Positions 4,979 through 30,802 of a DNA stretch of 64,000 nucleotides are shown piece after piece; position 1 is the first letter of the stretch, and each line of letters starts with the position of its first letter. The stretch comes from Microgenomates group bacterium (lineage in GTDB: Bacteria; Patescibacteriota; Microgenomatia; Daviesbacterales; UBA10151): positions 512,589-576,588 of the forward strand of contig JBAZXP010000001.1 in assembly GCA_041659805.1 (NCBI GenBank), written 5' to 3'. A model generated the notes under the pieces. It was not told the DNA's origin. It saw only the letters and a program-made list of their open reading frames with translations, and ran no database searches. The position numbers were made by a program, and so were the translations under genes.

Positions 4979-4983
4979 ATCAT

Positions 4984-7140: not shown

Positions 7141-8750
7141 AGACAAAAATATTTTTTTTAGGAATATTATTAATAGCCTTTTTTCTAAGGTTTATTAATC
7201 TTGACAATGTCCCCCCAAGCTTAAATTGGGATGAGGTGTCAATTGGCTATAATGCTTACTCAATTTTAAAAACAGGTACTGATGAATGGGGAAAATTTAT
7301 GCCATTAAATTTCCGGGCCTTCGGTGATTATAAATTACCATTATATATTTATGCAGACATTCCTTTTATCGCTTTATTTGGGTTGAATGCGGTTGGCGTG
7401 CGTTTATTATCAGTACTTTCCGGATTAGGAGTAGTCATTCTTAGCTATCTTATTCTAAAAAACTTAACTAAAAATAACACCATAGCACTTATCGGGATGT
7501 TTACGGCAGCAACATTGCCATGGTTAATAATTTTATCAAGAATAGGGCTAGAAGCAAATTTTGCATTATTTTTAGTAACCCTGTTTGTTTATCTTTTTTT
7601 AAGAGGAGTTGAGGAAAAACGATTTCTTGTGTGGTCCGGTATACCCCTTGGTCTGTCTCTTTTTACTTATAATAGCAGCCGCGTTACCACCCCTTTTCTT
7701 ATTTTTGCTGCTGTAATACTTTTTTGGAATAAGCTAAAGAGTCATAAGAGGGAAAGCATTCTAGCTGCAGTAGTTTTAATTTTTTTTGTTTCTGTAGTTA
7801 TTCCTTTGGCTTTATTTTCAGATTCCAGTGCGCGTTTTCAGTGGACGACCATACTTGATGAGGGAGCAATTTTATCTATTAATCAAGAAAGAGGTTTATC
7901 CTCTTTGCCTGCTGCATTTAAGCCTCTTGTTTATAACAAAGTGACTTATTTTATAGTCACATCTGCGCAAAATTATCTTTCGTATTATAATCCTGATTTT
8001 TTATTTATAAACGGAGGATCGAATTTTCAATTTTCAGTTCCGGGAACAGGGCTTTTGTTTTGGGCTTTAATTCCGTTTTTTCTTATCGGGATTTTTTATG
8101 TTCTTTCAAAAAGAAAAGACTGTCAATTGTTTATTCTGGCTTGGTTGTTTATTGCGCCAATCCCGGGTTCAATTACCAGAGATGCACCACATGCTTTACG
8201 TAGTTTATTTATTATTCCACCAATTATTATCATCAGCTCCTTAGGAATCGTTTTTTTAGGCAATAAACTTAAGCAAACATTATTTAAGATAGTTATTCTA
8301 ATTTTTCTTTTGTTGATGGTCTTTCAAACCTATCTTTTTTGGGTTAATTATAATGGCAGTTATAGACAGGAGTTTTCCTGGTCCTGGCAGTATGGTTATA
8401 AACAGGCGATGGAATATATTCAGGTCAATTATTCAAATTATTCCAAGATTGTAATTACAAAATCATACGGAGAACCGCATGAATTTCTGCTCTTTTACCT
8501 TAAATATGATTCTTATAAATATCAGCACGATCTGAGTTTGGTCCGTTATGAAAGGAGTCAGTGGTTTTGGGTTGATAGATTTGATAAGTTTGAATTCATA
8601 AATGATTGGGAAATAAAAGATAGAATGAAGAATGCTCATAATACACTTCTGGTAACAAGTCCCGGTAATTATCCTCCCGGAAGCGCGATTGTGCAGACAA
8701 TTGATTTTTTGGATGGGAAAAGGGCTTTTGATATAGTGGATATAGAGTAG
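7137..8750 (+). CDS. PMT/ArnT-like (GT39/PMT_2) GT-C glycosyltransferase
   Basis: About 11 predicted TM helices. Loop-1 'LNWDEVSIGYNAYSILKTGTDEWGKFMPL' (conserved DE). C-terminal soluble domain with 'ITKSYGEPHEFLLFYLKYDSYKYQ' and 'FLDGKRAF', shared by 8773 and 10405. ATGA overlap with the upstream gene. Confidence 0.75.
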   Translation: MKTKIFFLGILLIAFFLRFINLDNVPPSLNWDEVSIGYNAYSILKTGTDEWGKFMPLNFRAFGDYKLPLYIYADIPFIALFGLNAVGVRLLSVLSGLGVVILSYLILKNLTKNNTIALIGMFTAATLPWLIILSRIGLEANFALFLVTLFVYLFLRGVEEKRFLVWSGIPLGLSLFTYNSSRVTTPFLIFAAVILFWNKLKSHKRESILAAVVLIFFVSVVIPLALFSDSSARFQWTTILDEGAILSINQERGLSSLPAAFKPLVYNKVTYFIVTSAQNYLSYYNPDFLFINGGSNFQFSVPGTGLLFWALIPFFLIGIFYVLSKRKDCQLFILAWLFIAPIPGSITRDAPHALRSLFIIPPIIIISSLGIVFLGNKLKQTLFKIVILIFLLLMVFQTYLFWVNYNGSYRQEFSWSWQYGYKQAMEYIQVNYSNYSKIVITKSYGEPHEFLLFYLKYDSYKYQHDLSLVRYERSQWFWVDRFDKFEFINDWEIKDRMKNAHNTLLVTSPGNYPPGSAIVQTIDFLDGKRAFDIVDIE

Positions 8751-8760
8751 AAAATTTAGG

Positions 8761-8766
8761 TATAAT
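8761..8766 (+). promoter_or_regulatory. TATAAT -10-like box 6 nt upstream of ATG 8773 (near-leaderless start)
   Basis: 'aggTATAATattagtATG'. No Shine-Dalgarno between box and start. Confidence 0.3.
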
Positions 8767-8772
8767 ATTAGT

Positions 8773-10401
8773 ATGAGGATAAAAACTCCCTCCATTTATG
8801 TATTCATAATTTCAGTAATTTTTCTTCTGGGACTTTTGTTAAGGGTTGTTTCTCTTCAAAATTTTCCACCGGGCTTTAATGCAGATGAGGCAGCTTTAGG
8901 CTACAACGCTTATTCAATCATACAAACAGGTAAAGATGAATGGGGGCAAACTCTTCCTCTGGTATTTAAATCATTTTCAGACTACAAGCCTGGCTTATAC
9001 GTCTATTTGGATATACCTTTTGTTTATTTGTTCGGTTTAAATGAGCTAGCAGTTAGATTGCCCTCAATTATTTTAGGTTCGTTTTCAATTATACTTATTT
9101 ATCTTCTCTCGAAGCTTCTATTCAAAAAAGAGGTAGTTGCTTTGTCCACTGCATTTTTATTGGCGATTTCACCTTGGCATCTGCATTTTTCAAGAGGAGC
9201 TTGGGAAGCCAATGTGGCTACCTTTTTTATGCTCCTGGGAGTTTTTTCATTTTTAAAGTCTTTTACCAACCGCCGTTTCCTGTGGGTATCCGCGCTAGCT
9301 TTTATAGCCTCTATGTATGTATATCAAAGCACAAGGTTGGTGACGCCTGCATTACTGCTTTTGATAGGATTATTTCACTGGAAAAGATTGTTGATCAAAA
9401 AAAATATCTTAATAATTACTGCATCGTTTATTCTACTACTTCCTTTAATCCTCATTTTGCCTACTACAGCAGGTTTAGCCAGATTAAAAGGAGTTTCTAT
9501 TTTTTCCGATCCCGGTCCTATAAATCGGGCAAATGAAGAAAGAGGACAGCATCAAGATCCTGATTCGATTTCAGCTAAATTCTTTCACAATTATTTCTTT
9601 ACTTATTCAAAAAGCTATTTTAAACATTACACTGATCATATGAGTCCTGACTTTCTATTCATTTCAGGAGGTTCATTAAAGAGGAATGAAGAGCCTAATA
9701 TGGGACAGATGTATAGGTTTGAAATTATTACACTTCTTCTGGGTCTATATTTCCTTTTCCGGAATAAATTTAAAGATTCGGAAATAATAATTTTATGGTT
9801 TATTGTAGCTCCTATTGCTTCGTCGCTTACTTTCCAAACACCGGATGCTCACAGATCTCATAATATGGTTATTCCGTTAATCTTAGTTTCTGGTTCAGGC
9901 CTGGGGTTTTTAATTGAGAAAATTTGGCAAATAAAAAAGATTTTCAGGAGTATTTTCTTAATTTTACTTTTTTTTATAATAAGTTTTTTTGTTGTAGACT
10001 ATATGGATAATTATTATGTGCATCTTCCTAAAGAATATGCATTGGAATGGGAATATGGTTTTTCTCAAATGGTACCTTATGTTTTAGAAAATCAGAATAA
10101 ATATCAAAAAATAGTTATTACAGACCGGTATGATCAACCTTATATATTGTTATTATTTTATTCCAAATATGATCCGACAAAATATCAAAGAATGATTAAA
10201 AAAGAGGGTGATAATAAATTCGGATTTACAACTGTTACAAATTTTGATAAATACGAATTTAGGCCGGTTTCACAAGAAGAGGTATTAAATGATCGTAATA
10301 CACTTTTTGTCGGGACTGGAGAGGAGATTAAACAAGGCAATGTTTTGAAAACAATTAATTTCCCTAACGGTTCACCCGCCTTTAAAATAACCGGTATTTA
10401 A
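8773..10401 (+). CDS. PMT/ArnT-like (GT39/PMT_2) GT-C glycosyltransferase
   Basis: 'NFPPGFNADEAALGYNAYSIIQTGKDEWGQTLPL', 'LLAISPWHLHFSRGAWEAN', C-terminal 'ITDRYDQPYILLLFYSKYDPTKYQ ... FPNGSPAF'. Tandem paralogue. Confidence 0.75.
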   Translation: MRIKTPSIYVFIISVIFLLGLLLRVVSLQNFPPGFNADEAALGYNAYSIIQTGKDEWGQTLPLVFKSFSDYKPGLYVYLDIPFVYLFGLNELAVRLPSIILGSFSIILIYLLSKLLFKKEVVALSTAFLLAISPWHLHFSRGAWEANVATFFMLLGVFSFLKSFTNRRFLWVSALAFIASMYVYQSTRLVTPALLLLIGLFHWKRLLIKKNILIITASFILLLPLILILPTTAGLARLKGVSIFSDPGPINRANEERGQHQDPDSISAKFFHNYFFTYSKSYFKHYTDHMSPDFLFISGGSLKRNEEPNMGQMYRFEIITLLLGLYFLFRNKFKDSEIIILWFIVAPIASSLTFQTPDAHRSHNMVIPLILVSGSGLGFLIEKIWQIKKIFRSIFLILLFFIISFFVVDYMDNYYVHLPKEYALEWEYGFSQMVPYVLENQNKYQKIVITDRYDQPYILLLFYSKYDPTKYQRMIKKEGDNKFGFTTVTNFDKYEFRPVSQEEVLNDRNTLFVGTGEEIKQGNVLKTINFPNGSPAFKITGI

Positions 10402-10404
10402 AAG

Positions 10405-11994
10405 ATGACTAAGAAAATTAAAATAATTTTTTTTGTAATCATTGTCCTGGCAGCAGTTTTAAGAATATATAAACTTGATTCAATTCCACCTGCACTAAAT
10501 TGGGATGAAATTGATGCAGGATATAACGCATATACAATTGCAAATTGGGGACGTGACGAATGGGGGCAATCATTTCCTCTTGTTTTTACTTCGTTTAAGG
10601 ATGACAAACACCCTGTGCATATATACTTTGCTGCAATAAGTGTAAAACTATTGGGTTTGAATGATTTTTCAACAAGATTGCCGGCAGCTTTATTTGGAGT
10701 TTTTTGTGTTGCGGCGATGTTCTTTTTGGCAAGATTATGGTTTAAATCAGATTTAGTAGCTATTTTTGCAGCACTGTTTTTAGCAATTTCGCCTTATAAT
10801 ATACAATTTTCGAGAGGTCTTTGGGAGACAAATTTCGCACTATTTTTCTTTTTGATGGGTTTTATATTTTTTTATAAGTCAATAAACAGAAATGTCAAAT
10901 TTCTTATATTGTCTATAGTAAGTTTTTTTATAAGCATATTGTCATACCATTCTCCTGTTGTTGTAGTTCCCCCGATTATGTTGTTGCTAATCCTTCTTTA
11001 TTTCCGGGAAATAATTAAAATTAAACATCTGTTTGTTGGAATAATAGTGTTGGCATTACTCACATTAATATTAGTTTTAAATCCGCGAATATTAGGACTT
11101 GCCAGGATTAAACAAACAAAATTCGGAGATGATCTGTTGAGAAAAACACAGATGTACCAACTTACTAAAAATAATAATCTCGCTGCCCTTGAGATTGCTT
11201 TAAGTCAGTATCCGGTTCATTATACTTCTGAGTATCTGTTTGAAAAAGGTGATCAAAGTGCCAGAAACTCAGTTAAAGTTTTCGGGGAGTTTTATAAAAT
11301 AGACGCAATATTTATGTTGATTGGGTTTGCTGCCTTAGTTTTTTTAAGATCCAGAGTAACTCTTATTTTATTTGCCTGGATTTTACTGGCACCTTTGCCG
11401 TCTGCTTTAGTGATGAATCCGCCGAACGCAACAAGAGCTCTATTTATGATGGGGTCTTTGCATATGTTATCTGCTTTAGGTGCTGCAACAATTATAAAAC
11501 TAATACCTTTAAAGCCTTTAAAAATTATTTCAATAGTAGCTATTTTATTAATTTTAGGATCTTTCAGTAAAAATTACTTAGATTATTATTTCAATGTTTA
11601 CCCGAGTAAGGAATCTATTGATTGGCAATATGGAATGAAACAGATTGTTGAATATGTTAAGGACCACAATGGATATTCTCAAATTTATGTGACAGATATC
11701 AGATCCCAACCTTATATCTTTTTTCTTTATTATCTCAAAACACCTCTATCCGAATTTTTAGATACAGCATCTTATAATAACGGTAAAATGAAGGACACCA
11801 GTTTGGTATCATTTTATGATAAATATTACTTCGGGGAATGGGACCCGATTGAAAGTATGCCTAATCCGGGAGTTTTATATGCAGTTACAGCAAGTCAGTA
11901 TGACGGTTTAAGATATAAAAGTGTATTTGACGTTAAAAAACGTATAAAATATCTGGATGGAAGAGATGCGTTCTTTTTAGTAAGCTATCCATGA
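10405..11994 (+). CDS. PMT/ArnT-like (GT39/PMT_2) GT-C glycosyltransferase
   Basis: 'LNWDEIDAGYNAYTIANWGRDEWGQSFPL', 'LFLAISPYNIQFSRGLWETN', C-terminal 'VTDIRSQPYIFFLYYLK ... YLDGRDAF'. Third tandem paralogue. Confidence 0.75.
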   Translation: MTKKIKIIFFVIIVLAAVLRIYKLDSIPPALNWDEIDAGYNAYTIANWGRDEWGQSFPLVFTSFKDDKHPVHIYFAAISVKLLGLNDFSTRLPAALFGVFCVAAMFFLARLWFKSDLVAIFAALFLAISPYNIQFSRGLWETNFALFFFLMGFIFFYKSINRNVKFLILSIVSFFISILSYHSPVVVVPPIMLLLILLYFREIIKIKHLFVGIIVLALLTLILVLNPRILGLARIKQTKFGDDLLRKTQMYQLTKNNNLAALEIALSQYPVHYTSEYLFEKGDQSARNSVKVFGEFYKIDAIFMLIGFAALVFLRSRVTLILFAWILLAPLPSALVMNPPNATRALFMMGSLHMLSALGAATIIKLIPLKPLKIISIVAILLILGSFSKNYLDYYFNVYPSKESIDWQYGMKQIVEYVKDHNGYSQIYVTDIRSQPYIFFLYYLKTPLSEFLDTASYNNGKMKDTSLVSFYDKYYFGEWDPIESMPNPGVLYAVTASQYDGLRYKSVFDVKKRIKYLDGRDAFFLVSYP

Positions 11995-12857
11995 ATAATA
12001 AATTAACAGTTGTGCTGGCTACCTATAACGAAGAAAAAAATATTAAAGGATGTTTAGATTCAATAAAGTATATCACTGATGAAATTGTTATTGTTGACGG
12101 GTCTTCAACTGATAAAACAGTTGATATTGCAAAATCATATAATGCAAAAGTTGTTATAACTGATAATCCCAAAATTTTTCATATTAATAAACAAAAAGCA
12201 ATTGATATCGCGAGCAATGAATGGATTTTACAGCTTGATGCTGATGAAAGAGTGTCGCCGAAGCTTGCTGAAGAGATAAAGAAGATTATTTCTATGGATG
12301 AAAGTGGGATTGAAGCATATGAAAAAAAGTTACCAAATAGAAATCTTTTTTTACGGCACCAAAAGTTGGTTGAAGAAAGAGATGGGACAATAGGAGAAAA
12401 AAGTGGCGCATATAATGCTTTTTATTTTCCCAGACTTAATTATTTTTTAGGCAAATATTTGAGATACGGAGGTGTTTATCCGGACGGGGTAATCCGTTTA
12501 ATTAGAAAAGGAAAAGCATATCTACCCTGTAAAAGCGTTCATGAACAAATGGTTGTGAGCGGAAGGGTTGGCTGGCTCCAGCATGATTTATTGCATATGG
12601 CTGATACAACATTTGAAAGATATTTGCAAAGAAACAGCCGTTATATAGATCTTATCCGGGATGAGCTGAAAAGAGATAAAGTAGGTAAAAATATTATTCA
12701 AATGATTAATTATTTTATTTTAAAGCCTGTTTATTGGTATTTTTTAACTCAAATACGACACAAAGGTGTTTTAGATGGTTTTCAGGGAATAGTTTTTTCT
12801 TTTTTTTCTGCATTAAGATTTCCCAGGGCTTATTATAGATATATAACACAATTATGA
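11991..12857 (+). CDS. GT2 glycosyltransferase, WaaE/KdtX-like (divergent)
   Basis: 'LTVVLATYNEEKNIKGCLDSIKYITDEIVIVDGSSTDKTVDIAKSYNAKVV', 'LQLDADERV', 'VYPDGVIRLIRKG'. Has an insertion relative to the other three paralogues. Confidence 0.7.
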   Translation: MNNKLTVVLATYNEEKNIKGCLDSIKYITDEIVIVDGSSTDKTVDIAKSYNAKVVITDNPKIFHINKQKAIDIASNEWILQLDADERVSPKLAEEIKKIISMDESGIEAYEKKLPNRNLFLRHQKLVEERDGTIGEKSGAYNAFYFPRLNYFLGKYLRYGGVYPDGVIRLIRKGKAYLPCKSVHEQMVVSGRVGWLQHDLLHMADTTFERYLQRNSRYIDLIRDELKRDKVGKNIIQMINYFILKPVYWYFLTQIRHKGVLDGFQGIVFSFFSALRFPRAYYRYITQL

Positions 12858-13891
12858 AAATAGGTTTTTGCGTCTCAGCACTTTCAAGCGGACATAATAT
12901 AAGAGGAATAGGCGTTTATACGAAAAACCTTCTTGCAGCTCTAAAATCTAATGACGGGGTAGTCATTCAGGAATTTTCAGGTTCTGCGATTCCTAAAACT
13001 GACATAGTTCACTATCCTTTTTTTGATTTATTCAAAAAGTCGTTACCGATTCGAAAAGATGTTCCGACTGTTGTTACAATTCATGACGTTATACCTTTGG
13101 CATATTCTGAATTTTACCCTGCCGGGACTAGGGGTTTTGTAAATTTGTATTTACAGAAATTGTCTTTAAAAAACGTATCAGCGGTAATAACGGATTCTAA
13201 AGCTTCTAAGGAAGATATAATTAAATACCTGAAATTTCCTGCCTCAAAAATTTACACAATTCCGTTGGCCCCTGCAGATTATTTTCACAAGATAGATGAC
13301 AAGGATAAACTAAAAACGATAAGGCAAAAATTTAATCTGCCTGAAAAATTTGCTCTTTTTACAGGTAATGTTAATTGGAATAAAAATTTAGTTAATCTTA
13401 CTGCTGCTGCAATAAAAGCGGATATTGATGTTGTTTTAATCGGTAAGGGTTTTGAAGAAAAAGAGAATTTGGATCATCCGGAGCTTAGAAGCTTTAAGGA
13501 ATTTCTGAATAAATTTTCTACTAATTCGAAGGTTCATATTTTAGGGTTTGTTGAGGTTGGGGACTTAGTTGGTATAACTAATATGGCAACAATGGCATTA
13601 TTCCCGTCAAACGCAGAAGGGTTCGGTTTGCCTATCCTGGAGGCTCAAATTTGTGGTACGCCTGTTATTACATCAAATATTTCTTCTATGCCCGAAGTTG
13701 CCGGTAGAGGTGCTTTATTGGTTGATCCGAATTCGGTTGAAAGTATTTCACGGGCAATTTCAAGAATATTAACTAAGAAAGATCTTAGAGAAGAGTTGAT
13801 CAAAGAAGGGTTAAAGAACGTAAAAAGATTTTCCTGGAAAAAAACTGCCCAAGAAACTATTCAAGTATATGATAAAGTCCTACATTCCTAA
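12854..13891 (+). CDS. GT4 (GT-B fold) glycosyltransferase
   Basis: 'EGFGLPILEAQICGTPVITSNISSMPEV' is the E-x7-E motif. N-terminal 'MKIGFCVSALSSGH'. Confidence 0.75.
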   Translation: MKIGFCVSALSSGHNIRGIGVYTKNLLAALKSNDGVVIQEFSGSAIPKTDIVHYPFFDLFKKSLPIRKDVPTVVTIHDVIPLAYSEFYPAGTRGFVNLYLQKLSLKNVSAVITDSKASKEDIIKYLKFPASKIYTIPLAPADYFHKIDDKDKLKTIRQKFNLPEKFALFTGNVNWNKNLVNLTAAAIKADIDVVLIGKGFEEKENLDHPELRSFKEFLNKFSTNSKVHILGFVEVGDLVGITNMATMALFPSNAEGFGLPILEAQICGTPVITSNISSMPEVAGRGALLVDPNSVESISRAISRILTKKDLREELIKEGLKNVKRFSWKKTAQETIQVYDKVLHS

Positions 13892-15008
13892 AATTATTCT
13901 TATTTTTGCCTTTTGGAGAATTGCACTTTTTGTCGTTGCATTTTTGGCGCTTTTTGCATTTCCGGTTTTCGGTAACAGATTTCCTTATTGGGATATGTTA
14001 CTTTCAACAACCGGTCTTCCATCATGGATCTGGGGTTTTGGAAGTTTTGATGGTGTGCACTACCTTCGGATTGTAACAATGGGATATGAGTCATCACAAT
14101 ATTCACAAGCTTTTTTCCCGCTCTTTCCGTTATTTATAAAGATGGTGACTTTATATAGCGGAAATTTTTTAGTTGGGTTAATATTCACAAATTTGGTTTT
14201 TTTGATGGCTTTAATCGTTTTCTATAAATTGGTTGAGTTGGATTATAATCACAAGACTGCTTTACTTTCTATAATTTTGCTATTAGTTTTTCCAACTTCT
14301 TTTTATTTCGGATCTTTATATTCAGAATCTTTATTTTTATTTTTTACTGTCTCAACTGTTTATCTTTTACGCAAAAAGAACTATTTAGCTGCAGGAGTTT
14401 ATGGTTTGCTTGCTTGTAGCACCCGGATTATTGGACTATGGCTAATACCTTTATTTTTAACAGAAATCTTTTTTGAGTATAAGGGTACAAAGGTTGATAA
14501 GGGTACATCTACTAAAATAATCTTCGGATTATTTCTTATTCCCCTTGGTGTTTTTCTATACATGCTTTATTTAGGTTTTAATTTTAATGATCCGATTTTA
14601 TTTTTGAGTTCACAGCCTGCTTTCGGAGCCCAAAGAAGTAGCTTCATTGTAACGACTCCGCAGGTATTTTTTAGATATATAAAAATACTGCTTACAGTAC
14701 CCGTAAATTCCACTCTGTTTTTTAATGGTTTTCTGGAGTTTTGTTTTACCTTAATTTCTCTTATTTTTTTAATTATTGCATATGGAAAAACAAGGCTTAG
14801 CTATTGGGTATTTTCTTTCGGTTGTTGGCTAACACCTACTCTAACAGGTACTTTTTCTTCGATGCCCAGATATATTTTAATGATGTTTCTTTTATTACCC
14901 TTGATTGCAAAAATTAACAGTAAGTACTTTATTTTACTTGTAACATTGTTTATTATTCTAGGCATGTTACTAACAGCTTTATTTACCAGAGGATATTGGG
15001 TTGCATGA
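13869..15008 (+). CDS. PIG-V/Gpi18-like (GT76) polyprenyl-phosphate-mannose-dependent mannosyltransferase homologue
   Basis: 'FDGVHYLRIVTMGYESSQYSQAFFPLFPL' aligns with the PIG-V signature ('[28 protein letters not shown]'). Further 'SESLFLFFTVSTVYLL ... LLACSTRIIGLW' matches 'SEALFALLTFSAMGQL ... FATGVRSNGL'. Polytopic. Confidence 0.65.
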   Translation: MIKSYIPKIILIFAFWRIALFVVAFLALFAFPVFGNRFPYWDMLLSTTGLPSWIWGFGSFDGVHYLRIVTMGYESSQYSQAFFPLFPLFIKMVTLYSGNFLVGLIFTNLVFLMALIVFYKLVELDYNHKTALLSIILLLVFPTSFYFGSLYSESLFLFFTVSTVYLLRKKNYLAAGVYGLLACSTRIIGLWLIPLFLTEIFFEYKGTKVDKGTSTKIIFGLFLIPLGVFLYMLYLGFNFNDPILFLSSQPAFGAQRSSFIVTTPQVFFRYIKILLTVPVNSTLFFNGFLEFCFTLISLIFLIIAYGKTRLSYWVFSFGCWLTPTLTGTFSSMPRYILMMFLLLPLIAKINSKYFILLVTLFIILGMLLTALFTRGYWVA

Positions 15009-15664
15009 AGCTCGCCATCGTAGTTCCCGCATATAATGAGGAAAGCAGGATTGGCTCTGTGCTGCAGGATCTTATAAAAACGAAAATCCCCATTATTGTA
15101 ATTGACGACGGTTCGAGTGATAACACTTATAAAATTGTTCAAAGCAACAAGGTCATTCCTTTAAAACATAAAATTAATTTGGGCAAAGGCGCAGCTTTAA
15201 AAACCGGTTGTGAGGCAGCTTTTTCCTTGGGGGTGGAGGGCGTTATTATTATGGATTCGGATGGTCAGCATAGAGTAGGCGATCTCGATAAATTCGTCGC
15301 TGCACTTGAAACAGGAAATTATGATGTAGTATTCGGATCAAGAAATCTAAGTTTTGGAGTTCCGTTTATGCGGTTTGTAGGTAATAAATTTGCGTCTGTG
15401 CTAGTATCTTTTCTTTTTGGAATTTATGTGTCAGACTTGATCTGTGGCTACCGGGCTTTTACCAAAAAGGGCTATGATAACCTTAAGTGGCAATCGTCCG
15501 GATATGGAGTGGAGACAGAAATGGTTGTAAGGACCGGAAAACTAAAATTAAGATTTTGCGAAGTACCTGTGGAGACAATATATTTTGATAAATTTAAAGG
15601 GGTCACAATACTTGATGCGGTAGGTATTTTATTTAGTGTTTTGAAATGGAGAATTTATAAATGA
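14996..15664 (+). CDS. GT2 polyprenyl-phosphate sugar synthase (DPM1/GtrB-like), short soluble form
   Basis: 'KLAIVVPAYNEESRIGSVL', 'IIVIDDGSSDNT', 'IIMDSDGQH' (the DADLQH motif of DPM1/GtrB). No C-terminal TM helices. The start may be the internal Met at 15005. Confidence 0.7.
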   Translation: MGCMKLAIVVPAYNEESRIGSVLQDLIKTKIPIIVIDDGSSDNTYKIVQSNKVIPLKHKINLGKGAALKTGCEAAFSLGVEGVIIMDSDGQHRVGDLDKFVAALETGNYDVVFGSRNLSFGVPFMRFVGNKFASVLVSFLFGIYVSDLICGYRAFTKKGYDNLKWQSSGYGVETEMVVRTGKLKLRFCEVPVETIYFDKFKGVTILDAVGILFSVLKWRIYK

Positions 15665-16005
15665 TAATTGCACTACAACTAACAGCAATAGTCTTTGCGT
15701 TAATAATGATTTATTTTGCTTATTTGCATTTTTCCCGCGGAGAATTAAACGGCATTGAGATTTTGTCTTGGGTGGTTATATGGATGGTGACAATAGTAAT
15801 AGTTGTCTTCCCGGAATTACTGGCTGCTTTTGCAAAAACTTTTGCAATTTCAAGGGTGTTTGATTTGATGGTTATAGGAGGGTTTATTATGGTTATCTCT
15901 GTTGTTTATATTGCGTATGTTAGGACTAAGAGATTAGAAAAAAAGATTGAAGATTACGTGAGAGAGGAAAGCTTAAATAAAATAAGGAAAAATAGAAAAA
16001 AATAG
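15661..16005 (+). CDS. Small 3-TM membrane protein, DUF2304-like (GT2-associated)
   Basis: 114 aa with three predicted TM helices and a basic tail. Resembles what I recall of DUF2304 proteins that pair with DPM1-like GT2 genes. ATGA overlap with the upstream GT2. Confidence 0.45.
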   Translation: MIIALQLTAIVFALIMIYFAYLHFSRGELNGIEILSWVVIWMVTIVIVVFPELLAAFAKTFAISRVFDLMVIGGFIMVISVVYIAYVRTKRLEKKIEDYVREESLNKIRKNRKK

Positions 16006-16060
16006 TATAAGCGTCTGTTCTTTTTTGCCAAATTACTATTCTCACAATTTAAATGAACAT

Positions 16061-17062
16061 ATGAAAATATTGATAACAGGAGCGGCAGGATTTATAGGTA
16101 GCCACTTAGTTGATTTATTACTAGCTGAGGGGGTTGGTGCCAAAGATTTAAGATTGATTATTCCTAAGGGTGAGTCCCTAAATAATTTAGCAAAAGTTCC
16201 GTTTGAAATTATTCGAGGAGACATTCGTGATAAAAAATCTGTGGCGAAGGCAATGAAAGGCGTTGATGTTGTTTACCATTTAGCGGCAAAAATAGACTTT
16301 GATGGTAAAACATATCATGAGTACGGGGAAATAAACGTCGACGGTACACAGAATTTACTCGATGCCTGTAAAGGGAAAAAGATCCGGAAATTTATTTTCT
16401 TTTCCAGTATTGGGGTATTTGGTCTTCCTGCAGGGATCGGAGATATTATTAATTGGGATGAAAATCACCCTAAGACATACACTAATTTCTATGGCAAATC
16501 TAAGTGGGAGGGTGAGAAGAGGGTTATGAAAGCACATGATAAATGGGGTTTGCCTTATGCAATTATAAGACCTGCAAGTGTCTATGGACCCAGAGAAAAG
16601 GGTCCGACATATGGTATGTATCAGGCAATAAAAAAACATCAATTTTTGATGATAGGGAATGGAAAAAATAAAATGCATTATGTTTTTGTTGGAGATTTAG
16701 TGAAAGCCGCCCGCTTGGCAGAGTTAAGCCGTAAGATAAAAGGTGATTACATAATTGGAGGTCCGAGTGCCGATAAATTTATTGATATCGCCGATTCAAT
16801 TGCTGCAAGTATAGATATGAAAATCCCGAGGTTTTACTTACCGAAAAAATTAGCATTAGTACTTAGTTACTTAATGGAACTTGCAGGGAAAATGGTCGGC
16901 ATTAAGCCGCCGCTTTTTCCGTCACGTGTCAGAACCATGACAACTACTTACTTTTATAATATCAATAAAGCTAAAAAAGAATTGGGTTATAATCCTCAGA
17001 TAGATTTTAAAAAAGGATCTACCGTAACAGGCCGGTGGTATATGCAAAATAACTTATTATGA
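16061..17062 (+). CDS. NAD-dependent epimerase/dehydratase (extended SDR)
   Basis: 'MKILITGAAGFIGSHLVDLL' Rossmann motif, catalytic 'YGKSK'. The track ORF starts at 16025 but the Rossmann motif argues for Met at 16061. Confidence 0.75.
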   Translation: MKILITGAAGFIGSHLVDLLLAEGVGAKDLRLIIPKGESLNNLAKVPFEIIRGDIRDKKSVAKAMKGVDVVYHLAAKIDFDGKTYHEYGEINVDGTQNLLDACKGKKIRKFIFFSSIGVFGLPAGIGDIINWDENHPKTYTNFYGKSKWEGEKRVMKAHDKWGLPYAIIRPASVYGPREKGPTYGMYQAIKKHQFLMIGNGKNKMHYVFVGDLVKAARLAELSRKIKGDYIIGGPSADKFIDIADSIAASIDMKIPRFYLPKKLALVLSYLMELAGKMVGIKPPLFPSRVRTMTTTYFYNINKAKKELGYNPQIDFKKGSTVTGRWYMQNNLL

Positions 17063-18099
17063 AGCTTCCTTTAATTTCAGTAATAATTGTGACTTTTAAC
17101 TCAACTGATTATCTTGCAAAATGTTTAAGTTCACTTATGAAAGCTAAATATCCTAATTTAGAAATTATTGTTGTAGATAATAATTCCACTGATAATACAA
17201 TTAAATTTATAAAATCATTAAAACAAAACATAATTCCTATATTTTCTGATAAAAATTTAGGTTATGCAGGTGGTAATAATTTAGGGATAAATCAAGCCAA
17301 AGGGGAATTTGTTTTTTTGCTAAATCCTGATACTTTAGTTGATAAGAATATTTTTTCTTTCTTGATAGAGCCTTTTTTGTCTGATTCTAAAGTTGCCGTA
17401 AGTCAGCCGGCAATATACTTAATGAAAGATTCTGATCGTTTGAACTTAACCGGTAAAGTCACTCATTATTTAGGGTTCGATTGGGTGAGAGATTACGGGA
17501 AGAAGAATTCACCTGAAATGGGTGAGATAATGTCGTTTAGCGGCTGTGGAGTAATGATCAGGAAAAGTATCTTGGAAAGAACAAAAGCATTCGATTCAAA
17601 CTATTTTATGTACTATGAAGACAGTGATCTTTCATGGAGGCTGCGTCTATTTGGATACAAGTTAATATTTGTGCCATATGCAGTTATGTTCCATGATTAC
17701 AAATATATTCCCGTTGAAAGTTACCAGCCTTTAAAAAATAAGCTTTTTTATAATGAAAGGAATAGGCTTATTACCGTGTATAAAAATTATAGTATGGCGA
17801 CTCTTCTTTTAATTTTTCCTGCCGTATTAATCATTGAAATTTGTATGTTATTTTTTTCTTTAATAGGTGGATGGTTTGAAGAAAAGATAAAAGGTTATGC
17901 CTCTATTGTTAAACTTAGCAGCTCATTACATCAAAACAGAGTTTTTGTCCAAAAAAATAGAATATTATCCGATAAACAGGTAACTGCTATTTTTGCGAGT
18001 ACTTTAAACAGCAAAATATATGATAATTTGGGAGTAAAATATATTATTAATCCTTTTTTGTTTTGTTACTGGAGAATTATTAAAAATTTAATTAATTAA
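17059..18099 (+). CDS. GT2 glycosyltransferase, WbbL/rhamnosyltransferase-like
   Basis: 'ISVIIVTFNSTDYL', 'IIVVDNNSTDNT', 'GYAGGNNLGI', 'DSNYFMYYEDSDLSWRLRLFGYKL'. Confidence 0.75.
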   Translation: MKLPLISVIIVTFNSTDYLAKCLSSLMKAKYPNLEIIVVDNNSTDNTIKFIKSLKQNIIPIFSDKNLGYAGGNNLGINQAKGEFVFLLNPDTLVDKNIFSFLIEPFLSDSKVAVSQPAIYLMKDSDRLNLTGKVTHYLGFDWVRDYGKKNSPEMGEIMSFSGCGVMIRKSILERTKAFDSNYFMYYEDSDLSWRLRLFGYKLIFVPYAVMFHDYKYIPVESYQPLKNKLFYNERNRLITVYKNYSMATLLLIFPAVLIIEICMLFFSLIGGWFEEKIKGYASIVKLSSSLHQNRVFVQKNRILSDKQVTAIFASTLNSKIYDNLGVKYIINPFLFCYWRIIKNLIN

Positions 18100-18101
18100 A
18101 A

Positions 18102-18998
18102 ATGAAAAAAATAGCTATAACAGGTTTGAGCGGAGCAATAGGAACCAGATTTATGAAAAATCTTCCTGTGGGTTTTGAATTTTATGACCTTTATCACACC
18201 CATAAGGCATCTTCTGAACAAGTAATAAATAAGCACATAGAGTTGTTGGATCCGAAAAATATTCTTAAATGTTTAGAAGAAGTAAGTCCAGATATGATCA
18301 TACATATGGCAGCTATAACTCATATAGATAGATGTGAGGAGGACAGGAAATACGGAAAAGAAGGTAGTGTTTGGAAAGTTAATGTAGGCGCATCAGATGC
18401 AATATCCAAATATTGTAAAAAAAATCATACGAAACTGATATTCTTATCGACTGAATGTGTTTTTGACGGAGAGGAACCATTATATGAAGAAAAATCTTCA
18501 AAAAATCCTAAAAACTGGTATGGTAGAACTAAAAGTGAAGCCGAGGATATTATTAGAACTAATTTCCCGGAGGCATCAATTATTAGAGCAGTGATAGCTT
18601 ATCATGAAAATGACCTTGAAAAAACCTTATTCGGGAAATTATTGCAATCACTTAAAGATAAAAAGAGTTTTGGTGCAGTAACAGATCAAATAATTACCCC
18701 AACATATACAGATGATATTATCAAATCCATATCCTTATTAATTCAAAAGCCTCAATCAGGAATATTTCATATTTCTCCGGACTCTAAAACAACAATCTAT
18801 GATCTTGCATTTAAGTTGGCGAATAAATTTGGTTTTGATGATTCTTTAATTGTAGGGCAGACTTTGGAAGAGTATTTCGGAGAAGACAGAGCTAAATTAA
18901 GACTTAAAAATTCCTGCTTAAGGGGAGAGCAGACAAAATCTAAGTTAGGATTTGCTCCGTTAACGATAGATGATGTTTTGGATAAAATTAAGCTATGA
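18102..18998 (+). CDS. RmlD-like (dTDP-4-dehydrorhamnose reductase family) NAD(P)H sugar-nucleotide reductase
   Basis: 'IAITGLSGAIGTRF', 'IIHMAAITHIDRCEED', 'LIFLSTECVFDGEEPLYEE', 'YGRTKSEAE' (YxxxK) follow the RmlD substrate-binding-domain family pattern. Confidence 0.55.
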   Translation: MKKIAITGLSGAIGTRFMKNLPVGFEFYDLYHTHKASSEQVINKHIELLDPKNILKCLEEVSPDMIIHMAAITHIDRCEEDRKYGKEGSVWKVNVGASDAISKYCKKNHTKLIFLSTECVFDGEEPLYEEKSSKNPKNWYGRTKSEAEDIIRTNFPEASIIRAVIAYHENDLEKTLFGKLLQSLKDKKSFGAVTDQIITPTYTDDIIKSISLLIQKPQSGIFHISPDSKTTIYDLAFKLANKFGFDDSLIVGQTLEEYFGEDRAKLRLKNSCLRGEQTKSKLGFAPLTIDDVLDKIKL

Positions 18999-20179
18999 AA
19001 ATTTTGCAGATGGTTCCCTATTTCTATCCTGCCTGGGCTTATGGTGGCCCCGCTAAGCTGGTTTATGATACCAGTAAATATTTTGCCGAGTCAGGGCATG
19101 AAGTGACTGTTTATACTTCAGATTCTTACGACGAAAAGAAAAGAATGCCGAAGGAGAAGTATGTAACTGATGTAAAAGGTTTAAACGTGCGTTATTTCAG
19201 GAATATTAATAATAACTTAGCTTATGTTTATAATATATTTTTTACACCAGGTATATTTATTCAATCGCTTAAGGAGTTTAATAAGTTCGATGTAATACAT
19301 TTACATGATTTTTATACCCCTCAAAATGTTTGGATAAGCTTTTTGTCCGAAATATACAAAAAGCCTTATATTTTGAGTGTTCACGGATGTTTAGAGAAAC
19401 AACGGTTGGAGCAGAGAAGTTTATTTAAGCAGATTTTCTTAAAGCTTTTCGGAAAAATGCTATTAAATAATGCCTCCTTTTTAGTGGCAACATCCCTGAA
19501 TGAAATTGTTGCCTACCAGGAGTATGGTATACCGAAAGAAAAAATTGTATTTTTTGGTCATGGAGTAAACCCTGAAGAGTTTCAAACTGAAGTTAGCAAG
19601 TTGGTTGCGAGAAAAAATTTTGGATTAAACCGAAATGATTGCGTTGTTACATTTTTAGGTCGGATTCACCGTATTAAAGGATTAGATAATCTTGTTAAAG
19701 CTATAAGAAGAATAAAAAATCCTAAAATTCATTTTGTAATTGCAGGTTCAAATGATGGTTATTTGCCTCAGCTAAAAAAAGATATCCAAAAGTATAAATT
19801 ACAAAAGAAAATTACACTATGGGGAACATGTTTCGGAGAAGAAAAATCACAACTTTTTAAAGCCAGTGATATTTTTGTATACCCTTCATATTCAGAAGGA
19901 TTTTCATTAGGGATTTTAGAGGCAGCAGCATCAGGTTTGCCACTTGTTATTACATCCGGCTGCCATTTTGATGAGGTTGGTAAACAAAAAGCAGGTATTG
20001 TGGTTGATCCAGATGATGAACAAATAGCAAATGCAATTGAAAAGATAGCAGAGGATTATAAATTAAGGATTCAATTTGGAAAAAATGCTGAAAGATTAAT
20101 ATTTAATGACTTTTCTATGAAAGTAATCGGAGATAGGATTATAACTATCTATCAAAAGGCTGTTAAAATGAGTAGATAA
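18995..20179 (+). CDS. GT4 (GT-B fold) glycosyltransferase
   Basis: 'EGFSLGILEAAASGLPLVITSGCHFDEV' is the E-x7-E motif. Confidence 0.75.
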   Translation: MKILQMVPYFYPAWAYGGPAKLVYDTSKYFAESGHEVTVYTSDSYDEKKRMPKEKYVTDVKGLNVRYFRNINNNLAYVYNIFFTPGIFIQSLKEFNKFDVIHLHDFYTPQNVWISFLSEIYKKPYILSVHGCLEKQRLEQRSLFKQIFLKLFGKMLLNNASFLVATSLNEIVAYQEYGIPKEKIVFFGHGVNPEEFQTEVSKLVARKNFGLNRNDCVVTFLGRIHRIKGLDNLVKAIRRIKNPKIHFVIAGSNDGYLPQLKKDIQKYKLQKKITLWGTCFGEEKSQLFKASDIFVYPSYSEGFSLGILEAAASGLPLVITSGCHFDEVGKQKAGIVVDPDDEQIANAIEKIAEDYKLRIQFGKNAERLIFNDFSMKVIGDRIITIYQKAVKMSR

Positions 20180-20586
20180 TGTTAAACAAATTATCGAATA
20201 TTGGCTTAACAATATTAGTTTTATCGATATTTGTTTTGGTAATCCAAAATTTTTATGTTTCTTACTCAAAAATATTAGATCAATCATTATCAAGTTTATT
20301 TAAACCCGTTTATAAACCTGAAATAATCCTGGCTAAGTCATTAGGCCCTCAATTTCAGATACTCGAGTATATTTCCAAGAGTATTCCTGATTCATCAATC
20401 GTATGTTTTCCTGAAAATTATTATAAAATCGTTTTTAACCAAGACGAAGCTTACTTTCATTATTTTTGGCTTAATAGATCAGCCCTACCGGGAGAAGATA
20501 CCAGTTGTCAGTATAAAATAGAATTATTAGCTAATGAGGATAGACAACAAATTAATATAAATATTATAAATTTAAAAAAATCATGA
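20179..20586 (+). CDS. Hypothetical protein with N-terminal signal-anchor
   Basis: 135 aa, one N-terminal TM ('IGLTILVLSIFVLVI'), no recognisable motif. TAATG overlap upstream and ATGA overlap downstream. Confidence 0.4.
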   Translation: MLNKLSNIGLTILVLSIFVLVIQNFYVSYSKILDQSLSSLFKPVYKPEIILAKSLGPQFQILEYISKSIPDSSIVCFPENYYKIVFNQDEAYFHYFWLNRSALPGEDTSCQYKIELLANEDRQQININIINLKKS

Positions 20587-21944
20587 ACTACGATATATTC
20601 GGATACTTCTTTATATATATTTTCTATACATTATTTTGTTTAATCTGGTTTAAATCAACATTTATTATCAAATTATCACCGGTATTCCTTAGTAGTTTAA
20701 TTGCAAACCTTTCTTTCTTGGGGTTACTTAGCATTATATATCTTATATCCTTGATTTTTTCTGATAATATTTTGATTAATTATTTTTTTAGTTTCTCCTT
20801 TATTCTAATTTTCAGTATTTTTATCAGACAAAAAGTACTGACGAATAGTTCGATAATTACACTTAGAAAAGAAGAAAAATTATCTACAGGCGCAAAATGG
20901 TCATATTCTATTGCACAATCCCTAACATTAATATTTGGTTTGTTTATTCTGGCTAAGCAGTATTCTATTCCTAAATTTGGTTGGGATTCAGTAATCTATT
21001 GGGTGCCAAGAATGAAAGAAGTGGCATCAGGAGGCTTTATGCCATCTCTAAGCATTGGTTTCCCTTCATATCCGCCTTTATGGATTATCATCGGTTCACA
21101 TGCGCTGCACATTAATAGTAATTTTCTCTATCTATTACCCATTGTTCTTATAATTCATTTGGTATTGGCAACAGGAGACTATTTAAAAACAATTTCGGGG
21201 AAAAAGCTCATTCTCTATATTTATCCATTTTTTATACCAACCTTTATCAATTTAATTTTTAGTATGTATGCTTTAGAGCTTTATGCTAATTTTATAGTTG
21301 CTACCTTTTTATCTCTCGCTTTCTTTTTAAATGATCGGTTAGAGGAAAAAAGGATATGGATTTTATTAACCATAGTATTGATTGCTGCTGTGCTTAGCCG
21401 TCCTGAGGCCATTGTTTTTGTCGGACTTTGGTTTATCGTAAAGTTTATTCAATCATATAAAGAGAAACGAATGAAGCCGTTAATTAGATGTGCTATTTTA
21501 ATATTCTTATCATATATTTCATGGACTATTTTTTACATTAGTAATGGCATTTCAAATCCAATTACCGGTTATCTAATTCAGGGAGCTGGACAGATAAATG
21601 AGAATAAATCTTTAGTCGTATCAAAAGCAATTGAGATTTTACAATATAACTTACAAATTATGGCTTTAGATCAAATTTATTGGTTTATTTTGTTTTATGT
21701 TTTGCTAGCTTTTTTGATAAAAGGTTCAAAATTTTGGTTTTTTGTTAATATTCTTTGTTTCAGCTATTTGATTTTTGAGTATTTAACAGTGCCTGTTGCG
21801 GGAAAATCAACTATGAAGTGGTGGTTGCAAACTGGTTATTTAAGAATGTTCGGGGTATTTAGCTTGTGGATTTTCTTTGATTTCTTAATTAAACTAAATT
21901 CGGCTATGGAAATAACTTCGAAAACTCTAAAACGAGGTAAATAA
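20583..21944 (+). CDS. Polytopic membrane protein (about 12 TM), unassigned; candidate Wzy-like polymerase or GT-C
   Basis: Very hydrophobic 453 aa. External loop 'IPKFGWDSVIYWVPRMKEVASGGFMP'. No family signature recognised. Confidence 0.4.
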   Translation: MNYDIFGYFFIYIFYTLFCLIWFKSTFIIKLSPVFLSSLIANLSFLGLLSIIYLISLIFSDNILINYFFSFSFILIFSIFIRQKVLTNSSIITLRKEEKLSTGAKWSYSIAQSLTLIFGLFILAKQYSIPKFGWDSVIYWVPRMKEVASGGFMPSLSIGFPSYPPLWIIIGSHALHINSNFLYLLPIVLIIHLVLATGDYLKTISGKKLILYIYPFFIPTFINLIFSMYALELYANFIVATFLSLAFFLNDRLEEKRIWILLTIVLIAAVLSRPEAIVFVGLWFIVKFIQSYKEKRMKPLIRCAILIFLSYISWTIFYISNGISNPITGYLIQGAGQINENKSLVVSKAIEILQYNLQIMALDQIYWFILFYVLLAFLIKGSKFWFFVNILCFSYLIFEYLTVPVAGKSTMKWWLQTGYLRMFGVFSLWIFFDFLIKLNSAMEITSKTLKRGK

Positions 21945-21945
21945 T

Positions 21946-22632
21946 ATGATAATAAGCAAGATAATCAGGTATAAGAATATAATTTTTGGCATAGACCCAT
22001 ATTTTTTTGAACAAATTAAATGTTTGAGAAAACATTTTGGATCACAAAATGGCGGATGGACAATAGCAGTAGATGGTATTAACAAAAAAAGTATAATCTA
22101 TTCTTTTGGAATTGGAACTGACATATCATTCGATTTGGATTTAATTAATAACTATTCATTAAACGTATATGCTTTTGACCCGACTCCAAGATCTCTTGAG
22201 TGGCTTAAAAAGCAAAAAATTACTAAAAAATTTAGAATTTACCCTTGGGGGATAGCAGATTATGACGGAAAAGAAAAATTTACTCTTCCGCCTCAGGATC
22301 ACTTTGTTTCATTCAGAAAAACAAAAACAGGTTTAACAAAAAACATGATTTCTCTTCCTGTTTACCGGCTATCAACCATTATGAAAAAATTAGGTCATAA
22401 GAAGATTGATATTTTAAAAATGGATATAGAGGGATTTGAATATGGTGTTTTGGAGGATATTCTAAAAAGCCAATTAGATATAAAACAAATTCTGGTGGAG
22501 TTTCATCACCGTTTTTCCGGTTTTAATAAAAATGATACAGAAAAAGCTATTAAAAAACTAAATAAGGCGGGTTATAAGATATTTAATATTTCAGATATAG
22601 GGTTAGAGTATTCTCTAATCAGAAAGGTATAG
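21946..22632 (+). CDS. FkbM-family SAM-dependent methyltransferase
   Basis: 'YSFGIGTDISFDLDL' (SAM-binding glycine-rich motif) and 'DILKMDIEGFEYGVLEDIL' (FkbM KIDVEG-type motif). Confidence 0.65.
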   Translation: MIISKIIRYKNIIFGIDPYFFEQIKCLRKHFGSQNGGWTIAVDGINKKSIIYSFGIGTDISFDLDLINNYSLNVYAFDPTPRSLEWLKKQKITKKFRIYPWGIADYDGKEKFTLPPQDHFVSFRKTKTGLTKNMISLPVYRLSTIMKKLGHKKIDILKMDIEGFEYGVLEDILKSQLDIKQILVEFHHRFSGFNKNDTEKAIKKLNKAGYKIFNISDIGLEYSLIRKV

Positions 22633-22635
22633 GAT

Positions 22636-23490: not shown

Positions 23491-23511
23491 TTATAGTGTG
23501 ATGTTAATCAT

Positions 23512-30142: not shown

Positions 30143-30162
30143 GGTAACTTATACAATTATTG

Positions 30163-30798: not shown

Positions 30799-30802
30799 TG
30801 GA

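Follow-up and report, generated by a model that had tools for sequence, protein, structure and literature searches.

We analysed a stretch of 64,000 nucleotides (nt) from a Microgenomates group bacterium (contig JBAZXP010000001.1, positions 512,589 to 576,588), here called the window, which is AT-rich with a GC content of ~32%. The subject is a run of three genes encoding a compact membrane glycosyltransferase (GT) of the GT-C class that resembles PIG-V, a short GT of family 2 (GT2) and a small DUF2304 membrane protein. A first-pass annotation had described them as a eukaryote-style module for supplying and using lipid-linked sugars. All three open reading frames (ORFs) are present on the + strand where that annotation had placed them, and the motifs it quoted were all confirmed in the window.

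13869–15008, + strand: compact PIG-V-like GT-C, 379 amino acids (aa), PF04188
15005–15664, + strand: short GT2, 219 aa, without a transmembrane (TM) domain, DxD motif 'DSD', PF00535
15661–16005, + strand: DUF2304 small membrane protein, 114 aa, about three TM segments, PF10066

Both joins within the trio are ATGA overlaps. The stop codon TGA of the GT-C gene (15006–15008) overlaps the GT2 start ATG at 15005, and the GT2 stop codon (15662–15664) overlaps the DUF2304 ATG at 15661. The three genes are translationally coupled. Read from a TTG codon, the GT2 ORF spans 14996–15664 (222 aa); the public annotation starts it at the ATG at 15005 (219 aa), and among the 120 closest homologues listed nearly all are 217–239 aa long, most of them exactly 219. 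No fusion of GT2 and DUF2304 occurs among these 120, and such fusions have been reported elsewhere (bioRxiv 10.1101/180810). The three proteins are 100% identical to their public counterparts, which NCBI names 'mannosyltransferase family protein', 'glycosyltransferase family 2 protein' and 'DUF2304 domain-containing protein'.

A hidden Markov model search bore out the family assignments that had been put forward for the trio. The GT-C, which contains 'SFDGVHYLRIVTMGYESSQYSQAFFPLFPL', matches PF04188 with 28.0 bits (gathering cut-off 22.4, E 1.8e-6), so the threshold named in the first-pass annotation as a check is passed. The GT2, which contains 'IIMDSDGQH', matches PF00535 with 86.3 bits, and the small membrane protein, with about three hydrophobic segments, matches PF10066 (DUF2304) with 61.4 bits (cut-off 25.5) over 103 of 106 profile positions. 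The PF04188 alignment is partial: residues 54–226 of the GT-C cover profile positions 55–242 of 443, or 43% of the profile. PF04188 is nevertheless the top Pfam family among 30 GT-C homologues, 28 of which match it (best E 9.3e-18), and the rival families are weaker (PMT_2 in 6/30, GT87 in 3/30).

Alignment of the 30 homologues (48–76% identity) revealed three invariant motifs. The first, F-D61-G-V-H64-Y, lies in the first loop after TM helix 1, with D61, G62, V63 and H64 identical in 30/30 sequences; the others are TGTxSSMPRY (326–335) and RGYW (374–377). D61 is the sole invariant acidic residue of the first external loop. An AlphaFold2 model of the GT-C (predicted local distance difference test, pLDDT, 85.5; predicted template modelling score, pTM, 0.89) has a TM helix at residues 6–30, a loop at 31–99 with short juxtamembrane helices, and then about 10 membrane helices. 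This is the layout expected of the GT-C fold, namely an N-terminal TM helix, a large first external loop and ~11 TM helices in a 1-6-4 arrangement (PMC6801728). A Foldseek search against the PDB at E ≤ 0.001 returned exclusively GT-C enzymes (ALG12, STT3), and PimE was among the structural matches with a TM-score of 0.48 in both directions.

PimE (D58), ALG6, ArnT and PglB each use one Asp as catalytic base, and it sits on the tip of juxtamembrane helix 1 (PMC12041525). The invariant loop-1 Asp of the window GT-C corresponds to this residue, and since all four enzymes use a single Asp at that helix tip, we propose D61 as the obvious candidate for the catalytic base. PimE, a GT87 enzyme, is similar also in being a compact, metal-independent GT-C of ~380 aa (PMC12041525). 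The likeness to the Ppm1/PimE pair has its limits, as the GT87 profile is touched only weakly by the three homologues mentioned above and Ppm1 has no DUF2304 partner. We propose that the window GT-C is an extracytoplasmic transferase that uses a lipid-linked sugar.

For the GT2 the best curated NCBIfam model is that of PpgS (NF058614; 115.2 bits, cut-off 370), which aligns end to end (GT2 residues 8–215 against model positions 4–219 of 226). The models of AglJ (98.7 bits) and of a haloarchaeal dolichyl-phosphate (Dol-P)-hexose transferase (59.9 bits) come next, and the best solved relative is the Dol-P-Man synthase of P. furiosus (5mlz, E 4e-10). From these sequence matches we propose that the GT2 is a polyprenyl-phosphate sugar synthase of the PpgS/GacI/DPM1 clade. 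The description 'DPM1-like' in the first-pass annotation therefore holds at the level of the clade, but the closest characterised enzymes are bacterial. DPM1 is likewise a catalytic GT2 without a TM domain of its own, and it works with the small membrane subunits DPM2 and DPM3. The window GT2 is also related in sequence to the archaeal synthase 5mlz; the likeness of DUF2304 to DPM2/DPM3 is an analogy only, and the closest curated models of the window GT2 are bacterial N-acetylhexosamine (HexNAc)-lipid synthases.

Pairs of this kind have been characterised in several bacteria. In S. pyogenes, GacI makes GlcNAc-P-undecaprenol; GacJ, a DUF2304 protein of 113 aa with three TM segments, co-purifies with GacI and raises its catalytic efficiency, and GacI is active and membrane-associated also without GacJ. 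The GT-C GacL transfers the GlcNAc onto polyrhamnose, and for the flipping step GacK, a Wzx protein, has been proposed (bioRxiv 10.1101/180810). The equivalent in M. tuberculosis and C. glutamicum, PpgS/Rv3632/Rv3779, places GalNAc/GalN on arabinogalactan; Rv3632 is a DUF2304 protein that stimulates PpgS, and a UDP-sugar epimerase is encoded nearby (PMC9671496). Further GT2/DUF2304 pairs are EpaI/EpaJ in Enterococcus and WpsA/WpsB in Lactococcus (PMC8327497). By analogy with these, we propose that the window DUF2304 protein is a membrane partner and activator of the GT2, of the GacJ/Rv3632/EpaJ/WpsB type.

The window resembles the Gac system in that a short GT2 without TM segments is directly followed by a DUF2304 protein of ~113 aa with three TM segments, with a polytopic GT-C in the same cluster. 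Cytoplasmic synthesis of a polyprenyl-phosphate sugar, followed by extracytoplasmic transfer, would be their common logic. It differs in its origin from a bacterium of the Candidate Phyla Radiation (CPR)/Microgenomates without adjoining rhamnan genes, in lacking an adjoining Wzx gene, and in that the trio sits in a block with PMT_2 GT-Cs and a GT2–GT4 pair; its GT-C is of the PF04188 type, the comparison with GacL being one of description and not of family. With the PpgS system it shares the best curated GT2 model, the DUF2304 partner and a GT-C for the final transfer (in C. glutamicum, cgp_0394/0393/0658). Here the differences are that the M. tuberculosis GT-C gene is distant from ppgS whereas the window GT-C and GT2 genes overlap, and that the UDP-sugar 4-epimerase near ppgS has as its window counterpart a short-chain dehydrogenase/reductase (SDR) that is HpnA-like, not GalE-like. 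The proposal that the GT2 and the DUF2304 protein make a polyprenyl-phosphate sugar for GT-C enzymes thus gains support from the PpgS and AglJ models, from 5mlz and, by analogy, from the Gac and Ppg systems. The label 'eukaryote-style' does not, as GT2 + DUF2304 + GT-C is a characterised bacterial arrangement. The first-pass annotation had also suggested that the DUF2304 protein anchors or flips the lipid-linked sugar. Of these, anchoring comes close to the role of a complex partner; flipping finds no support, since the tested homologues, GacJ and Rv3632, bind and stimulate the synthase and the flippase proposed for the Gac system is a separate Wzx protein.

The same evidence bears on another reading, in which the GT-C would be a genuine orthologue of PIG-V (GT76) and add alpha-1,6-mannose from polyprenyl-phosphate-mannose; with a DPM1-type synthase it would build a mannolipid like glycosylphosphatidylinositol (GPI) or phosphatidylinositol mannosides (PIMs), as a prokaryotic counterpart or ancestor of the eukaryotic pathway. 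PF04188 is the best family of nearly all homologues, among PDB sequences the GT2 is matched best by a Dol-P-Man synthase, the similarly compact PimE is among the structural matches, and a GT4 gene lies directly upstream of the GT-C gene. GT4 is the family of PIG-A and PimA, and in the PIM pathway cytoplasmic GT4 steps come before the GT-C steps. PIM-like glycolipid synthesis has moreover been suggested for Saccharibacteria from genome annotation (PMC6031116), and with PIG-V/Gpi18 the window GT-C has in common the GT-C fold, the N-terminal TM helix and an external loop with a catalytic acidic residue. The similarity is, however, not of the full-length, orthologue-grade kind. The window protein has 379 aa against 493 aa and matches 43% of the profile with 28 bits, whereas human PIG-V matches PF04188 at E 4e-216 (PMC6056205). 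The PIG-V signature between TM1 and TM2 is D/ExE (PMC6056205, Table 1); judged against this published signature, the window family has the invariant D-G-V-H in its place. The residue two positions after D61 is Val in 30/30 homologues, and only 4/30 have a [DE]xE at any position of external loop 1. The motif had been called near-textbook PIG-V, a description that we would not keep.

The partners point the same way. The best synthase model is PpgS, which acts with GalNAc, DUF2304 partners are known only with HexNAc synthases, and the SDR genes of the block point to modified or epimerised sugars rather than GDP-mannose. The genes that accompany the GT-C are bacterial (DUF2304, PMT_2) and not those of the GPI pathway: among the ~35 window proteins scanned we saw no PIG-L, PIG-M or PIG-B, no inositol-related family and no inositol-lipid genes. 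Because of the weak and partial PIG-V match, the absence of D/ExE, the HexNAc-type nearest synthases and the bacterial partners, we disfavour the mannolipid reading and give it little chance of being correct.

Prokaryotic homologues of the GT-C had been thought uncommon, which proved not to be so. When its relatives are clustered at 50% identity, 9,563 clusters fall within E ≤ 1e-3 and 4,394 remain at E ≤ 1e-10, and a database at 90% identity gave at least 3,354 matches. GT76 is routinely listed in bacterial inventories of carbohydrate-active enzymes. In the literature that we consulted, we found no characterised bacterial PF04188/GT76 enzyme and no described CPR GT-C system. Four fusions containing the GT-C domain (P0295, P0341, P0380, P0371) give no link to GT2 or DUF2304; one of them joins it to another GT-C-like (PTPS_related) domain.

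To place the trio among its relatives we used a synteny scan with one genome per species, which gave 80 loci; judged by the organism or by gene content, every one belongs to the Patescibacteria. The lineages were Daviesbacteria, Woesebacteria, Curtissbacteria, Gottesmanbacteria, Chisholmbacteria, Collierbacteria, WWE3 and Paceibacterota, and the GT-C was 36–74% identical to that of the window. The downstream region was counted in the 69 loci whose GT-C ORF is intact and whose sequence continues for at least 2.5 kb beyond it. All three genes are present in 52 of these, with the pair downstream on the GT-C strand. The 69 loci are distributed as follows:

22 loci: GT-C, GT2 and DUF2304 contiguous on one strand
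23 loci: one or two genes inserted ahead of the GT2–DUF2304 pair
6 loci: GT2 and DUF2304 both downstream, with one gene between them
1 locus: pair elsewhere in the flank
1 locus: GT2 only
16 loci: neither GT2 nor DUF2304

The adjacency of GT2 and DUF2304, also named earlier as a check, is conserved, with DUF2304 directly after GT2 in 46/69 loci. Starting in reverse from DUF2304 homologues, we found this GT-C family no more than two genes upstream in 6 of 7 distinct loci. Some of the GT-Cs upstream of DUF2304 homologues have no recorded Pfam match yet score 257–562 bits on the profile of the window GT-C family. What stays constant is thus the GT2–DUF2304 pair; it most often has the PIG-V-like GT-C beside it, but other neighbours occur.

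The conservation extends beyond the trio. Related loci carry a block with the order [PMT_2]n-GT2-GT4-PIGV-like-(SDR)-GT2-DUF2304, which in the window occupies 7137–17062. Its other members, and the gene that follows, are:

7137–8750, 8773–10401 and 10405–11994, + strand: three tandem PMT/PMT_2-type GT-C paralogues, PF02366 and PF13231
11991–12857, + strand: cytoplasmic GT2 of 288 aa, in the conserved block, PF00535, 71.9 bits
12854–13891, + strand: cytoplasmic GT4 glycosyltransferase, in the conserved block, PF00534, 99.8 bits
16025–17062, + strand: SDR-family NAD-dependent epimerase/dehydratase, PF01370, 139 bits
17059–18099: cytoplasmic GT2 downstream of the SDR

The GT4 gene overlaps the start of the GT-C gene by 23 nt, and a GT4 homologue is immediately upstream of the GT-C in 54/70 loci. 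The order GT2..GT4 precedes the GT-C in 62/70 loci, and in 59/64 the PIG-V-like gene has a PMT-type GT-C upstream. The number of tandem PMT/PMT_2 paralogues in the block is one to four; those of the window match one another at 182–313 bits and are likely further consumers of the lipid-linked sugar. One related locus (L006; loci of the scan are numbered with L) carries two PIG-V-like genes, a local duplication like that of the PMT_2 genes.

Taken together, we consider it reasonably probable that the three genes form a split, three-component system for extracytoplasmic glycosylation. On the cytoplasmic face, the 219-aa GT2 would load a sugar from a nucleotide sugar onto polyprenyl phosphate of the undecaprenyl type, and the 3-TM DUF2304 protein, in complex with it, would raise its catalytic efficiency. 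A separate protein would then flip the polyprenyl-phosphate sugar, for which Wzx-type or EamA/SMR-type transporters are candidates. Outside the membrane, the compact GT-C would glycosylate a cell-surface acceptor with the lipid-linked sugar as donor; Asp61, which sits on external loop 1 at a juxtamembrane helix tip, would serve as the base, and the transfer would proceed with inversion. The same donor may also supply the PMT_2-type GT-Cs nearby. Family membership, the GT-C fold, the gene overlaps and the conserved synteny are the observed part of this case. From characterised homologues we infer the complex with DUF2304 and its stimulating effect, the carrier lipid and the side of the membrane on which each step takes place. 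Most likely, the trio represents the bacterial scheme of GacI/GacJ/GacL and PpgS/Rv3632/Rv3779 in a lineage new to it, rather than a pathway imported from eukaryotes.

Several observations weigh against this three-component reading or narrow it. The pair is missing within 8 kb in the 16 loci that have neither gene. In the genomes of two of them (L004, L005), the pair lies 20–30 kb from the PIG-V-like gene on the same contig, as L090 and L091. In L085 the pair adjoins PMT_2 GT-Cs only, with no PIG-V-like gene. In the detached pairs L090 and L091, where the GT2 is 62% identical and the DUF2304 gene overlaps it, the neighbouring GT-C is of ~1,145 aa, with an AftD-type PF11847 match in L090 and none on record in L091. 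Because the pair adjoins AftD-type or PMT_2 GT-Cs in L085, L090 and L091, the PIG-V-like enzyme is not the only consumer of what the pair makes, and it may not be an obligate one. The idea of a pair dedicated solely to this GT-C is weakened by the same three loci, and the suggestion in the first-pass annotation that one donor serves several GT-Cs is partly vindicated by them (AftD-type in two genomes, PMT_2 in one). There is no flippase gene inside the window module. The sugar of the GT2 is not assignable from its sequence, since it scores far below the equivalog cut-off (115 against 370 for PpgS); GalNAc specificity is not implied, and neither the hexoses nor the mannose assumed earlier can be read from a protein whose best model is a GalNAc-lipid synthase. 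Finally, the upstream linkage of GT2–GT4 (62/70) is tighter than that of the downstream pair (52/69), and it fits the building of a lipid-linked oligosaccharide equally well as single-sugar decoration.

The last point leads to an alternative modelled on the Wps system, in which the pair makes a polyprenyl-phosphate-HexNAc primer that the GT2 at 11991–12857, the GT4 at 12854–13891 and the GT2 at 17059–18099 extend, after which a Wzx-type protein flips the oligosaccharide and a GT-C transfers it whole. In the scheme proposed for Lactococcus (WpsA/WpsB...WpsJ; PMC8327497), the GacI/GacJ-like pair WpsA/WpsB primes such a decoration, GT2s extend it and a membrane protein attaches it. The GT2..GT4 order upstream of the GT-C, another GT2 that often follows DUF2304, and a Wzx-like gene in the window are in agreement with this. 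That gene is 36 kb away, however, a Wzy-like polymerase was not identified, and several GT-C paralogues in tandem would be more usual where monosaccharide donors feed an extracytoplasmic, step-by-step addition. We regard priming of this type as unlikely.

Yet another option is that the donor mainly feeds the PMT_2 enzymes, for O-glycosylation of proteins as by Ppm1/Pmt. In that case the donor of the PIG-V-like enzyme would be a different one, which could be the product of a PgfS/ArnC-like synthase at 30803–31765, and its adjacency to the pair would reflect shared regulation only. PMT-type GT-Cs accompany the block in 59/64 loci, L085 combines the pair with PMT_2 genes in the absence of the PIG-V-like gene, the pair is also found beside AftD-type GT-Cs, and a second synthase does exist in the window. 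Against this, the PIG-V-like gene is the immediate, translationally coupled neighbour of the pair in the window and 22 other loci, and it stays within two genes of it through several rearrangements. We think this option quite improbable. The same low probability applies to a further idea, namely that the block, conserved across Microgenomates and other Patescibacteria, encodes a CPR-specific lipid-anchored glycan (a PIM-/GPI-like lipoglycan) or a surface-protein glycosylation central to the episymbiotic surface, and that its compact PF04188-type GT-C stands for the bacterial ancestry of the eukaryotic GPI mannosyltransferase II.

The window SDR (16025–17062) is a candidate for making the nucleotide sugar of the GT2; among NCBIfam models an HpnA-like one fits it best (152 bits, less than the cut-off). 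An SDR stands between GT-C and GT2, or between GT2 and DUF2304, in about 20 related loci. These inserted SDRs differ in subfamily (GalE-like in L062, GDP-fucose-synthase-like in L011), and the HpnA-like SDR of the window follows DUF2304. We rejected it as a fixed fourth member, a close homologue being found after DUF2304 in only 1/56 loci. Because both position and subfamily vary, the SDR gives no consistent clue to the sugar, and the varying types suggest that the sugar differs between lineages.

SMR/EamA-like membrane proteins of 122–138 aa are encoded between GT-C and GT2 in four loci (L035:4292-4660, L042:9251-9634, L052:9100-9516 and L054:9109-9477), and a full EamA transporter stands there in L045:9126-10010. 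ArnE/F-like small membrane proteins are of the kind proposed to flip undecaprenyl-phosphate sugars. By analogy, the small SMR/EamA-type proteins are plausible as better flippase candidates than DUF2304. The inserted SDR and SMR/EamA-like genes both fit the three-component scheme. Further genes of possible relevance lie elsewhere in the window:

30803–31765, − strand: second polyprenyl-phosphate sugar synthase, GtrB/ArnC/PgfS type, PF00535, 99.7 bits
42886–43749, + strand: EamA-family transporter, PF00892, 46.7 bits
52111–53682, − strand: Wzx/MurJ-superfamily flippase candidate with 13 hydrophobic segments, PF01943, 82.6 bits, and PF13440, 56 bits

The Wzx-like protein, although distant from the module, may by analogy with GacK translocate the lipid-linked sugar, and the EamA protein is an alternative candidate. 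The second synthase had been recognised by its motif as GtrB/ArnC-type, and we agree: 'LLDGDLQDPP' in its GT2 domain is followed by two C-terminal hydrophobic helices, and the PgfS (242.6 bits, cut-off 500) and ArnC (147.9 bits, cut-off 529) models align end to end. After it on the − strand come a methyltransferase dependent on S-adenosylmethionine (SAM; 30163–30798) and a B12-binding radical SAM protein (28559–30142) with HpnJ-like and TIGR04013-like matches. The genes at 28559–31765 suggest an unusual C-methylated or otherwise modified sugar or lipid.

The first-pass annotation had counted seven or more GT-C enzymes. We can support five, namely the three PMT/PMT_2 paralogues, the PIG-V-like protein and the product of 49–1323, a 424-aa polytopic protein without a Pfam match whose ORF starts near the window edge. 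The latter matches 8773–10401 with 120 bits and by its sequence is a fourth PMT-type GT-C, apart from the tandem three. A sixth has weaker support: 4984–7140 encodes 718 aa with an N-terminal GT2 domain and about 11 TM helices, and may be a GT2–GT-C fusion, the membrane part matching the PMT-type paralogues with 17.5 bits (E 3e-6). Three polytopic proteins with 10–11 hydrophobic segments, encoded at 20583–21944 (453 aa), 37420–39216 (598 aa) and 58091–60187 (698 aa), gave no Pfam, NCBIfam or PDB sequence match and could be further GT-C enzymes, polymerases or ligases. A promoter scan of positions 4000–23600 gave 97 promoter-like sites against 90.5 ± 9.3 in shuffles, and the terminator-like sites in that region are weak stems of five to eight pairs; neither was used.

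Some features of the related loci are recorded here as observations. In L090 (1566-5335) and L091 (3192-6969) the ~1,145-aa GT-C is followed by an unannotated protein of 112–113 aa, and in L090 a GT2 and a methyltransferase stand between this GT-C and the GT2–DUF2304 pair. The large GT-C thus forms a second type of GT-C partner for the pair, different from the PIG-V-like one. In a locus labelled Saccharimonadales (L081:7360-7737 and L082:7360-7737) a gene for a PF05635 '23S rRNA intervening sequence protein' lies directly after DUF2304, inside the glycan block. Many records of metagenome-assembled genomes with the block are titled 'uncultured Gammaproteobacteria' or 'Pseudomonadales' (L001, L004, L005, L017, L018 and others); the title of L066 reads Limisphaerales and that of L067 Vitreimonas. 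As their gene content, together with low GC in those measured (~31% in L001 and L065), points to Patescibacteria, the non-CPR titles look like taxonomic mislabels; L067 (42% GC) and L078 (54.5% GC) fall outside this call.

The genes of the trio were already annotated by family in public records, and the system is not of a new kind; the gain lies in recognising the CPR block as a conserved unit. In public records 'mannosyltransferase' names only the family and should not be taken to assign a substrate. For the bacterial proteins that make up a large branch of the 'PIG-V' Pfam family, we propose a working role. Most CPR/Patescibacteria are uncultured episymbionts, and their surface glycans probably mediate attachment to the host; the block described here, among the best conserved of their glycan gene clusters, follows the logic of GacI/J/L and PpgS/Rv3632/Rv3779.

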